Below are positions 2,638 through 13,545 of a stretch of DNA of 21,365 bases, in pieces. The stretch's first letter is position 1. Each line of letters opens with the position of its first letter. This DNA comes from a virus (Duplodnaviria; Heunggongvirae; Uroviricota; Caudoviricetes), in the IMG/VR virus record IMGVR_UViG_2574180227_000016; one strand, 5' to 3'. The notes under the pieces were generated by a model. That model saw only the letters and a program-made list of their open reading frames with translations, searched no databases and was not told the DNA's origin. Position numbers and translations under genes: made by a program.

Positions 2638-3243
2638 TCATGCGGCCTCACTTCTGCTGTTTCGCAGGTCTTTGAGTTTCTGTTGGTACTCTGCCTTGAT
2701 GGCCCTGCACTCTTCGACAGTCCAGCGATGGCGGTTATGGTTTGATTCGATTTCATCTACTGCTTCCTGCCCGATGCGGCTAATCAGTTCGACGCGATAC
2801 GGAACGAGATTTCCGCTTTTGTGCTGGTTGCACACCACGCATTGCTTGTGAATATTGCGTTCATCAAATCGGAGTTGAGGTGCCGCAGCAGTTGTCCGGT
2901 AATGTCCGGCATCCCACTGAGCAGACGTGAGCGTTCCGCACGAGATACATGGTAAGTCGCGGTCTCTTTCTCTGATGAAGGCGTTTACGGCTTGTTGGGC
3001 TTGTTTAATCCAGTAACTGCGGGGCTTTAAGGCGAGTTTTCGAATCTTCAGTTTATCTTTCTGTTTCTGCTCCTCTCGTCGTCGTTTCTTCTCTGCTGCT
3101 TTTTCCGCTTTTTCGCGTTCTTTACTTCGTCGTTCGAGTGCTAATTGAGTTCCGTGTTCCGGGCAGCACCACCACTGATTTGAGAATGCCGGGTGAAACC
3201 ATTCTTTGCATATTTTGCATTTCCTTCGCGCTGGTTTAGCCAT
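2638..3243 (-). CDS. ninG: NinG (Rap) recombination protein
   Basis: 201 aa, [26 protein letters not shown]...[19 protein letters not shown], close to lambda NinG. Start overlaps the upstream stop (TAATG). Confidence 0.85.
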
Positions 3244-3971
3244 TAAGCAGCCTCCCCTGTTACTTTCAGCATTCCGTTATCGAGCAGCTTTCTGGTCAGC
3301 CACTGTTGACCACGCCCGGTGATTTTTGTGGTGAACGATATCTGTATTCCGTGATTTGTGTTGACCGCTGTTTCTTTCACTGTGAAATAGCCGCGCTCCA
3401 TATATTCCTGCATTGGCACATTGCGCCGGGCACCTGAAGTAATAAGGATTTTGTGATCGCGCATCCACGCAAACAGTTTGTTTGGACCAATTCCAACAAC
3501 CTTTGCATAGTTTCCAATCAAAATTCCGCTGGCCTCGCCAACGCGATCGGCAAACTCAACTTTAGGTGCTGCGAGAGCAAGCTGTTTCTCCAGTTCAGCC
3601 TTCTGGTCTTCAAGGTCGGCCGCAAGGCGCAATGCCTCAGAAAAGGTTTGTGGTATTTTCGCGGTTGCCCCTTCGAGTTCTCGCCAACGGTCAACAAGAC
3701 GAGCGGTGAATTCCGGCGACAACTGAGCGACGACAATAATGCTGTCTCGCTTACCTTGTTCGCCTTCGAATATATACACGCTTGTGAATTTGTTAGGGCT
3801 AATTGTTTGTTTATTTTCAACTTTTTGCATTGGAGGAAGTTGAATCACCCCACGCTTTGCCAGACGTTCTATTGATATTCTGACATTACCGTGTTGGCTT
3901 CCCACCAACTCAGCGATTTCAATGCTTGTCATTTTGATGACGTTGCTATTTATCAGCTCATTCATTGTCAT
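3243..3971 (-). CDS. phage antirepressor-like protein (Rha-type N-terminal domain, KilA-C-type C-terminal domain)
   Basis: 242 aa with GAGAGG RBS. Domain assignment is from recalled family patterns, not a search. Confidence 0.5.
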
Positions 3972-4039: not shown

Positions 4040-4723
4040 TCAGTAGCGATGCAGTGAAGGCGGCAACTCTTTGTTCTTAAGCCTTTCCCATGCCAGAAGG
4101 TTCGTCGGCCCGTCAGGCTCATAAATATCTATATCCCGCGTGTGATTAATTAAAACGCCCCTCGCCCTCCCGATGGTATACGAGAACTCATAGCCGTAGT
4201 CGTGGCATATGCCGGAATAGCCAGACTGAATCAGTTTTAATGCGGGATACAACTCACGGAACAATGCCTGTGAGCGGTTGGCATAATCCCACAGCCATAC
4301 AAGGCTGTCTGTTTCTTTTGCGGAAAGCCCGTTGGGCTTCTTCTCTTGTTTGCCAGTATTTTTCTCGCACTGGCTGAAATAGCAGTCTTCCAGTTTTTCG
4401 AACACTTCCCACGCCCGATCGGTTTCGAGCATTTTTGCATGACGGGCTGCGCCGCGTTCTGTCCATAGGATGAGGGAGCGAACGTTACGGGCAATTTTCA
4501 CAGAGTAGTTAAAAGCTACTCTGTGCTTGAACTCACGTAAAGTTTCACCTTCAAGTTTGAAGAAGTGTTTTTCCTCAATGAAACGACCTTTGTTTTCGTG
4601 GTGATTCTGGCGAATACGAATAGCTTCTGTGCCGTAAAGGTGCGCCAAAAGTTCGGTAGTGATAACGGGGATCTGCTTGTAAGTAATCGTGGAGAGTGTT
4701 TCAACAGAAACTTGAGTTGTCAT
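4040..4723 (-). CDS. nin-region DNA-binding/antirepressor-like protein (ORF6N/Roi-like)
   Basis: 227 aa. N-terminus [33 protein letters not shown] resembles ORF6N-type antirepressor domains. Preceded by a 277-bp structured intergenic region. Confidence 0.45.
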
Positions 4724-4884
4724 AATGACGCCCTCGAGTGGTTTCTAAACTATCACCACCGTCAGGTTCCTAATCATCGGGTGGCGAGACGTACAGGGTT
4801 AGGAACTACCGGGAAACCAACCGGCGAGCTTTTCAGCTCCCCTATACGCCCCACCATAATTCAGATGTGCGTGTGCATACGACA

Positions 4885-4909
4885 ATAAAAAACACGCTCG
4901 CGGCGTGTC
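4885..4909 (-). terminator. rho-independent terminator inside the nin region (tR2-like candidate)
   Basis: In - strand sense: ACACGC-CGCGA-GCGTGT followed by TTTTTTATTG. Confidence 0.45.
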
Positions 4910-5000
4910 TCTGTCGCGGTTTCTATCCGGGGTTCCTAATCCCGACGCCAGATTTTGCTGGCGCGTGAGGAATATAGCCCCGAATAAATCATCACGTCAA

Positions 5001-5183
5001 TCACCTTGTTTTCCTCGCACGATGTCTTAGCCACCGGATATCCCACAGGTGAGCCGTGTAATTGAAGGTTTTAACGTCAGATTCTTTTGGGATTGGCCTG
5101 GGTTTATTTCTGGAGCGTTTCGTTGGAAGGTATTTGCAGTTTTCGCAGATGATGTCGGTGATACTTCGTCGCTGTCGCCTCAT
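5001..5183 (-). CDS. ninE: NinE
   Basis: 60 aa from the internal ATG: [60 protein letters not shown], matching lambda NinE as recalled. ATGA overlap with the upstream methyltransferase stop. Confidence 0.7.
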
Positions 5184-13377: not shown

Positions 13378-13404
13378 TATGTGTAAATAAATAAGGAGCA
13401 CACC

Positions 13405-13545
13405 ATGCAATATGCCATTGCAGGGTGGCCTGTTGCTGGCTGCCCTTCCGAATCTTTACTTGAACGAATCACCCGTAAATTACGTGACGGATGGAAACGC
13501 CTTATCGACATACTTAATCAGCCAGGAGTTCCCAAAAATGGATAA
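13405..13545 (+). CDS. cIII: CIII (FtsH/HflB inhibitor)
   Basis: Manual translation [46 protein letters not shown] (46 aa) matches lambda CIII over its length; AAGGAG RBS. Under the ORF-track cut-off. Confidence 0.8.
   Translation: MQYAIAGWPVAGCPSESLLERITRKLRDGWKRLIDILNQPGVPKNG

Follow-up and report, generated by a model that had tools for sequence, protein, structure and literature searches.

A probable phage P1 immI-type and Gifsy-1 isrK-type antisense-RNA cassette upstream of an antirepressor-like gene in a lambdoid prophage nin region

The 21,365-nt viral DNA stretch of IMG/VR record IMGVR_UViG_2574180227_000016 (hereafter the window, meaning the whole stretch analysed) contains a 277-bp spacer at positions 4724-5000, between ninE and a gene for an antirepressor-like protein with ORF6N and P22AR_C domains. 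Read on the minus strand, this spacer very probably constitutes a complete antisense-RNA control cassette of the phage P1 immI and Gifsy-1 isrK type, governing the antirepressor-like gene downstream. Cassettes of this kind are known already: curated models detect it, and a described RNA family accounts for it. A first-pass annotation of the same DNA had described a structured, non-coding spacer with three copies of a repeat and an intrinsic terminator, and had taken the repeats for the binding array of a DNA-binding protein, perhaps one of the adjacent antirepressor-like proteins; its structural description was essentially right and its functional guess wrong.

Anatomy of the cassette

The window was scanned with Rfam models at their curated gathering thresholds. 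The scan returned, on the minus strand, an IsrK-type small RNA (sRNA) of 78 nt at 4887-4964 (RF01394 isrK, 70.1 bits against a threshold of 50, model positions 1-77 of 77), a C4-type antisense RNA at 4777-4861 (RF01695, 66.0 bits against 45, model positions 1-87 of 87), and a c4-a1b1 element at 4924-4977 (RF03163, 47.8 bits against 46.7).

The predicted C4 RNA folds into a 17-bp closing stem around two internal hairpins. Its minimum free energy (MFE) is -43.8 kcal/mol (z = -5.0), and 0 of 200 shuffled sequences folded as well. The MFE structure is identical to the centroid and to the family consensus, accounts for 61% of the ensemble, and leaves both of the recognition sequences described below, a' and b', unpaired. 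Compensatory changes were found at 14 of the 27 consensus pairs among 12 loci. From the alignment to the annotated 77-nt C4 of phage P1, the mature RNA is predicted to span approximately 4855-4780 (76 nt).

The IsrK-type RNA comprises stem-loop 1 (4964-4945), hairpin 2 (4944-4928), a single-stranded linker and a terminator. Its MFE fold (-27.6 kcal/mol, z = -2.6) places the site a1 in a 9-nt loop and leaves the site b1 single-stranded. Stem 1 shows compensatory changes across 11 loci, and in these loci the GC stem and U-tract of the terminator are kept. The terminator itself (4887-4908, minus strand), supported by the isrK model and the MFE fold, has the stem ACACGC/GCGUGU (4908-4903/4897-4892), the loop CGCGA (4902-4898) and a run of six U (4892-4887). 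The minus-strand hairpin and T-run placed at 4885-4909 in the first-pass annotation is thus real, with hairpin and U-tract at 4908-4887.

A promoter-like sigma-70 element lies just upstream (4971-5000, minus strand), with a -35 hexamer TTGACG (5000-4995) adjoining the ninE stop codon (5003-5001), an 18-nt spacer and a -10 hexamer TATATT (4976-4971), giving 10 of 12 matches in a consensus scan. The predicted transcription start is near 4964, and the promoter ends 7 nt before the isrK match begins. In 12 diverged loci, a -35 of the TTGAC type and a -10 hexamer stand at equal distances from the IsrK 5' end. The predicted promoter is constitutive-looking. At the other end of the spacer, the antirepressor-like gene is preceded by a Shine-Dalgarno sequence GAGGG (4735-4731), read from the sequence, with a 7-nt spacer to the ATG at 4723-4721 (4721-4735 overall, minus strand).

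The description of the spacer as non-coding, with ninE ending at 5001 and the ORF6N gene starting at 4723, holds, and the predicted folds and Rfam matches agree with its being structured. A coding function was considered and rejected; the plus-strand open reading frames (ORFs) of 33-107 aa are unsupported, and a minus-strand ORF of 27 codons varies in length and frame.

A simple terminator scan gave candidates on the plus strand only, without the IsrK terminator on the minus strand; we guess that greedy stem extension into the U-tract caused the omission. One of the plus-strand candidates is a hairpin at 4898-4919 followed by TTTCTATCCG; it overlaps, on the opposite strand, the IsrK linker and terminator hairpin, and is unlikely to be an element in its own right.

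The repeats as pairing sites

The first-pass annotation reported two direct copies of GGTTCCTAATC on the plus strand, at 4765-4775 and 4931-4941, and both are exact. An inverted copy does exist, but it had been placed at 4786-4797, about 10 nt off: GGTTAGGAACT lies at 4797-4807. The inverted and direct copies share an exact 8-mer, TTAGGAAC/GTTCCTAA (4799-4806). With at most one mismatch, GGTTCCTAA occurs 5 times on both strands of the 21.4-kb window, against 3.7 expected, and 4 of these 5 occurrences fall within the 277-bp spacer, where approximately 0.05 would be expected. Only 19 of 5000 dinucleotide shuffles of the spacer contained a direct repeat of at least 11 nt. On this enrichment and these shuffles, a chance origin of the repeats was rejected. 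A fourth near-copy, GGTTTCTAA at 4740-4748, is part of a separate set of sites, designated b.

On the minus strand, the copies occupy the positions of the a sites of a C4 cassette. Site a1, UUAGGAAC (4932-4939, the repeat reported at 4931-4941), lies in the loop of IsrK hairpin 2 and is unpaired in both the MFE and centroid structures. Site a', GUUCCUAA (4799-4806, the reported inverted copy), lies in the single-stranded 3' junction of C4 and is unpaired in the MFE structure. Site a2, again UUAGGAAC (4766-4773, the repeat reported at 4765-4775), starts 4 nt past the end of the C4 match, in the unstructured leader. The b sites follow the same arrangement: b1, GAAACCG (4917-4923), lies in the single-stranded IsrK linker; b', UGGUUUC (4813-4819), lies in the loop of C4 hairpin 2 and is unpaired in the MFE structure; and b2, GAAACCA (4739-4745), lies in the leader of the antirepressor-like gene and ends 3 nt upstream of the Shine-Dalgarno sequence. 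The complementarity of a1 to a' is perfect over 8 nt, and that of b1 to b' amounts to 6 Watson-Crick pairs and a terminal G-U pair. In the leader, a2 is complementary to a' at 8 of 8 positions and b2 to b' at 7 of 7.

The leader offers a further pairing. The conserved sequence GGUGGUGA (4753-4760, minus strand) can pair with UCGCCACC (4787-4780), which in C4 forms the closing stem's 3' strand. GGUGGUGA would then be the 3' arm of a possible alternative hairpin, which would display a2 in its loop and may be an alternative structure of the precursor. Such a helix of at least 8 bp is possible in 43 of 59 unique combinations of arm and downstream sequence, with covarying arms such as GCUACCACC/GGUGGUAGC. 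In the MFE structure of the full leader, the sequence GGUGGUG of this alternative helix pairs with the b2 region instead.

Covariation of the sites among phages

BLAST searching located the cassette in 270 phage records, as well as in 769 of the 5426 complete E. coli genomes. The junction between ninE and an antirepressor gene is a frequent site, as in VT2-Sakai, the PA-series Shiga toxin 2a (Stx2a) phages and PhiR12_1; the cassette also adjoins cI/cro in some Stx phages, and occurs in an N15-like phage of Klebsiella and in a Yersinia phage. E. coli NCTC9112 has a 100% identical copy of the 311-bp cassette, at a locus whose upstream gene order is different; none of the listed records covered a 6-kb stretch with an identity of at least 99% along its length. 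All 11 diverged loci from lambdoid, Klebsiella and Yersinia phages gave isrK and C4 matches. Gifsy-1 yielded isrK, C4 and c4-a1b1, and phage P1 yielded C4 and c4-a1b1.

Among 12 loci derived from the BLAST search, the a and b blocks were the most variable columns, yet the match within each locus was always kept, and the stems were conserved or covarying. In VT2-Sakai, a1 and a2 read AUUGGCGU and a' reads ACGCCAA. In PhiR12_1, a1 and a2 are AUUUGCAC with a' GUGCAAA, and the b sites are UCAACC with b' GGUUGA. Stx2a_F451 has a1 and a2 AUUAGCAC with a' GUGCUAA, and b sites AUCGAAAC with b' GUUUCGA; in PA28 the b sites are GAAAAAGG and b' is CCUUUUUC. The b' sequence forms a hypervariable block of columns that changes jointly with b1 and b2.

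To extend the comparison, viral contigs were scanned with a pattern in which the a and b blocks were left free, giving 115 parsable copies and 89 unique leaders. These comprise 39 combinations of a' and b', built from 13 a' and 25 b' variants, and a2 lies at +5 to +10 in the 39 specificity types. All four helices (a1, b1, a2 and b2) reached at least 6 bp at the expected positions in 95% of the cognate combinations, compared with 5.4% of 1264 non-cognate ones. Such three-way covariation at two sites is the signature of RNA-RNA recognition. The position-restricted helix-length test replaced a matrix of RNAduplex energies for whole recognition segments (-31 kcal/mol for cognate and -21 kcal/mol for non-cognate combinations), which had a high background because the conserved CCGG stems pair among themselves. 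Parsing of a' and b' from MFE structures mis-assigned the loops in about one-third of the types and was not used.

The repeats are recognition elements, as the first-pass annotation had supposed, and are conserved in kind in homologous nin regions; its reading of them as DNA half-sites is not supported. The literal motif is not conserved, since its sequence varies from locus to locus in a compensatory manner, as expected of RNA-RNA pairing.

Tandem arrays of two or three C4 cassettes occur in some viral contigs (L026, L027, L038, L071, L086 and L091), for the most part at intervals of about 656 nt; in L038, for example, the minus-strand copies start at 1542, 2198 and 2854 in reverse-complement coordinates. 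Each tandem copy has its own combination of a' and b', so that more than one orthogonal antisense channel can be present in a single phage. A gene for a Rha-like protein of about 120 aa follows several of these leaders.

Among the lambdoid-phage and RefSeq E. coli records inspected, none has an RNA annotation at the cassette, and the phage P1 record alone has one. Spurious coding sequences labelled 'hypothetical protein' lie over IsrK or C4 in PhiR12_1 (L003, 1506-1649), Stx2_95 (L009, 1383-2045) and the Yersinia phage vB_YpM_44 (L010, 1590-1877). In the last of these, a ryfA match of 134.6 bits was found on the minus strand at 114-412, about 1 kb upstream of the IsrK/C4 cassette.

Comparison with phage P1

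The C4 RNA of phage P1, which RNase P cuts out as a stable species of about 77 nt, represses antirepressor synthesis. The phage P1 record lists, in order, the promoter P1c4 (formerly P51b, sigma-70), a1, b1, the 77-nt C4, a2, b2, icd and ant, with a2 immediately past C4 and b2 over the icd ribosome-binding site. The cassette in the window resembles the immI region of phages P1 and P7 in the order and spacing of the elements and in the fold of the C4 RNA, and a' of phage P1, CUGUCAA, lies at the same position in C4 as a' of the window. In both cases the sites vary from phage to phage but remain complementary within each one, and on this the heteroimmunity of P1 and P7 is based.

The two systems differ in several respects. 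The a site of the window is UUAGGAAC and that of phage P1 UUGACAG, and the b sites are GAAACC and GUUAGUG, respectively. The icd relay of phage P1 is absent; the first gene past b2 encodes the 227-aa ORF6N/P22AR_C protein, with no icd-like ORF, and this protein belongs to a different family from the antirepressors Ant1/2 of phage P1. Unlike that of phage P1, the promoter in the window has no evident C1-type operator. Between a1/b1 and C4 there is a clear intrinsic terminator, unlike in phage P1, and a1/b1 would therefore be releasable as a separate sRNA. Finally, the cassette in the window lies in the nin region of a lambdoid prophage, whereas phage P1 is a plasmid prophage.

Comparison with the isrK locus of Gifsy-1

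The Gifsy-1 locus (L134) has IsrK at 34316-34240, a C4 match at 34214-34131 and the start of anrP at 34076. It shares with the window a homologous IsrK with the same type of promoter, two 5' hairpins and a terminator, a C4 match at the same distance past IsrK, and an AnrP-type antirepressor-like gene downstream. The N-terminal 126 aa of the protein from the window, with the ORF6N domain, are 67% identical to AnrP/STM2616 (E = 3e-55), and the C-terminal domain differs. Other differences are the Gifsy-1 sites themselves (a UUGGCGU, b UCACCG) and the location of the cassette, which in Gifsy-1 is downstream of Q (Q, isrK, anrP) and in the window is in the nin region, upstream of ninG and Q. In Gifsy-1, the 45-codon orf45 is coupled to anrP by a stop codon that overlaps the start (AUGA), whereas the equivalent ORF in the window has 27 codons and is uncoupled.

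The pairing of G28 and G31 of Gifsy-1 IsrK with C162 and C159 has been established by compensatory mutation (Hershko-Shalev et al. 2016, PMC4825925). Numbered from the IsrK 5' end, the pairs G28-C162 and G31-C159 map exactly to a1 (U26-U32) and a' (A158-A164). What the study calls the 'first AUG' (A107) coincides with the AUG bordering C4 on its 5' side, and G114-C175 of helix d-II is a pair of the C4 closing stem. When IsrK was supplied in trans, translation of anrP rose 139-fold, and IsrK mutated in a1 had no activity (PMC4825925). STnc1160, a stable processed RNA, arises downstream of IsrK (PMC4825925), where the C4 match lies. By our mapping of the sequences, C4 would be the counterpart of the 'orf45' RNA and STnc1160, and the a1/b1 element that of IsrK. 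The Gifsy-1 study cites phage P4 CI as an analogue and mentions neither P1, C4 nor RNase P (PMC4825925), and a 2025 review gives C4 and IsrK as separate items. In the searchable literature, which does not include the primary papers on phage P1, no paper joining isrK with the antisense RNA of phage P1 was found. The locus is unmentioned in Tree et al. 2014, and a literature search on antirepressor, Stx2a and ninE returned nothing specific.

Gifsy-1 also has an intact a2, UUGGCGU, and an intact b2, AUCACCG, the latter abutting a GGAGGG Shine-Dalgarno sequence; neither is used in the published model.

A possible three-partner switch

From the likeness to phage P1 and Gifsy-1, we propose the following scheme. 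Transcription would be driven by the predicted sigma-70 promoter at 5000-4971, and the terminated product would be the 78-nt IsrK-type sRNA, while read-through past the IsrK terminator, or transcripts initiated upstream, would yield C4. By analogy with phage P1, C4 would be excised from the transcript and would pair through a'/b' with a2/b2, in cis or in trans, hindering 30S binding and thereby keeping the antirepressor off in the lysogen. As in Gifsy-1, IsrK would switch antirepressor translation on, here by occupying the same a'/b' surface of C4. Which state the switch takes would then depend on how many transcripts terminate and how many read through. Judging from its position, the IsrK terminator may be one of the terminators between pR and Q that N-antiterminated polymerase must pass.

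IsrK could compete for C4, because its sites lie closer together (a gap of 8 nt between a1 and b1, against 20 nt between a2 and b2) and its potential pairing is much more extensive (unconstrained duplexes with C4 of -52 kcal/mol for IsrK and -34 kcal/mol for the leader). We tentatively suggest, at somewhat less than even confidence, that the IsrK sRNA and C4 form a general three-partner titration switch in which a1/b1 is the decoy, a'/b' the antisense and a2/b2 the target.

Several points weigh against the reading of the spacer as an antisense cassette with this mode of action. The assignment of the promoter, the C4 ends and the direction of regulation all rest on homology. At other loci b2 frequently runs into the GGAGG Shine-Dalgarno sequence; the b2 allele in the window adjoins rather than overlaps the ribosome-binding site, ending 3 nt short of the Shine-Dalgarno sequence, so that ribosome occlusion is plausible but not obvious. 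The translation-coupled Rho termination of phage P1 may not transfer to the window, as no icd-like gene lies between C4 and the antirepressor gene. The nested structures computed with RNAcofold gave no net gain for C4 with IsrK or for C4 with the leader, a result that is uninformative because loop-loop (kissing) contacts cannot be represented in nested cofolding. [quoted passage not shown] The authors explain this rise by an inactive long-range a1:a' helix together with a coupled upstream ORF (PMC4825925).

Alternative explanations

The cis mutants bear on an alternative that we regard as improbable, namely that the Gifsy-1 model applies unchanged. The read-through transcript would be inactive through a long a1:a' helix, IsrK in trans would open it, the opened RNA would let orf45 be translated and the antirepressor by coupling, and C4 would not be an independent antisense repressor. 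This explanation is backed by direct genetics and native gels (PMC4825925), the cis a1 mutations derepress as it predicts, and the AUG at the 5' end of C4 is present in the window as well (4857). The ORF from this AUG, however, runs for 27 codons to a stop at 4776-4774, leaving 50 nt to the antirepressor ATG, which makes coupling to an upstream ORF unlikely in the window. Nor can such coupling be the general mechanism, because stop and start overlap in only 3 of 82 unique leaders with a recognisable downstream gene; the length of the ORF ranges from 8 codons up to fusion with the next gene. The C4 stems covary as RNA, and for Gifsy-1 the authors themselves noted that orf45 is conserved in nucleotide sequence and variable in amino-acid sequence (PMC4825925). 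The model also gives no role to a2 and b2, which are conserved and co-varying in every locus, including Gifsy-1. Finally, the compensatory double mutants G28A+C162U and G31A+C159U gave 224 and 327 Miller units, against 4 for the wild type (Table 1D, PMC4825925); they regained the gel conformer but not repression. This failure to restore repression is expected if a' has a third, unchanged partner in a2, an interpretation that is ours and not the authors'.

Phage P4 CI RNA invites a further comparison. It resembles C4 in being a small RNA that is processed out of its own operon's leader and has complementary copies upstream and downstream (seqA and seqC), and it controls immunity without a protein repressor; it differs in acting through premature termination of transcription of the replication genes. 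The general Rfam scan reported no P4 CI-type family in the window, and membership was tested no further. It is very improbable, and more so than the unchanged Gifsy-1 model, that the cassette acts chiefly on transcription in the manner of P4 CI, with pairing causing or preventing premature termination and so gating the antirepressor gene and roi-ninG-Q. The cassette does lie in the path from pR to Q with an intrinsic terminator within it, and Biere and colleagues reportedly concluded in 1992 that the effect of C4 on ant in phage P1 is ultimately transcriptional, through polarity. In Gifsy-1, where the authors raise the P4 analogy, a transcriptional fusion rose 8-fold, far less than the 139-fold translational effect, and constitutive STnc1160 left the effect of IsrK undiminished (PMC4825925). 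Moreover, b2 lies at or beside the ribosome-binding site in essentially all loci.

The protein-binding array is scarcely credible: the motif does occur three times in 180 bp, above chance, next to genes for ORF6N, Rha and KilAC domains, known in DNA-binding and regulatory phage proteins, but the curated RNA models and the phage P1 annotation have a1, a' and a2 just where the copies lie, and the motif is uncoupled from the proteins proposed to bind it (the products of 4040-4723 or 3243-3971). At the locus L102, the ORF6N protein is 98.2% identical over all 227 residues and the Roi-like protein 86.8%, yet a' is ACGCCAA and not GUUCCUAA; a completely different a site beside a near-identical antirepressor-like protein leaves the array unsupported. 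Conversely, loci sharing the a'/b' pair of the window encode ORF6N proteins that are just 53-67% identical. A second, unrelated trio, b1/b'/b2, obeys the same logic, the sites vary in a complementary, compensatory fashion across many specificity types, and the spacings (133 nt from a1 to a', 33 nt from a' to a2) are unlike those of dimer half-sites. With a1, a' and b' in predicted unpaired RNA and the motif uncoupled from the proteins, there is little room for a DNA half-site array.

Implications of the antisense cassette

Under the antisense-cassette reading, the repeats are an RNA specificity code rather than operators, which guides the choice of mutations and predicts which prophages could cross-regulate. 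AnrP triggers prophage induction in Gifsy-1 (PMC4825925), and its homologue in the window is therefore a candidate route of induction that bypasses the classical SOS/RecA pathway. In Gifsy-1, AnrP also up-regulates the Q-like antiterminator gene antQ. Shiga-toxin phages, VT2-Sakai among them, have close copies of the cassette at the same position in nin.

If the titration switch exists as proposed, it would unite C4 of phage P1 with IsrK, orf45 and STnc1160 of Gifsy-1, which stand separate in searchable papers. There would then be dozens of freely recombining specificity types, with at least 13 a and at least 25 b variants, and up to three tandem orthogonal cassettes per phage. Co-resident prophages with matching codes, Shiga-toxin phages included, could silence or trigger each other's antirepressors independently of SOS.

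Gene context and other features of the window

A lambdoid prophage's right operon lies on the minus strand of the window, with P, ren, small ORFs, ninB, dam and ninE, followed by the spacer and then the ORF6N/P22AR_C gene, a Rha/KilAC (Roi-like) gene, ninG and Q. Pfam searches agreed with the earlier naming of ninE and two antirepressor-like genes as neighbours. The regulated gene (4040-4723, minus strand) encodes a 227-aa antirepressor-like protein with an N-terminal ORF6N domain (PF10543, 1.2e-19) and a C-terminal P22AR_C domain (PF10548, 2.3e-24); an identical protein is named 'phage antirepressor Ant' in RefSeq. The second antirepressor-like gene (3243-3971, minus strand) encodes the Roi-like protein, with Rha and KilAC domains by Pfam. 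At other loci, the first gene after C4 belongs to the ORF6N, Rha, Bro-N or 'Derepression' family and is likewise antirepressor-like.

Further RNA matches lie elsewhere in the window. A weak tRNA match (32.6 bits against a gathering threshold of 29) was obtained on the minus strand at 1943-2012, just downstream of Q; ARAGORN found zero tRNAs anywhere in the window, and the match may therefore be a degenerate remnant of a phage tRNA. STnc100 gave a strong match (137.6 bits) on the minus strand at 907-1111, downstream of Q, at the position where the short leader RNA of the lambdoid late promoter (pR') would lie. The lambda cIII thermoregulator element was matched over its full length (88.5 bits) on the plus strand at 13392-13450, which places the pL operon on the plus strand, opposite the pR operon that holds the cassette.

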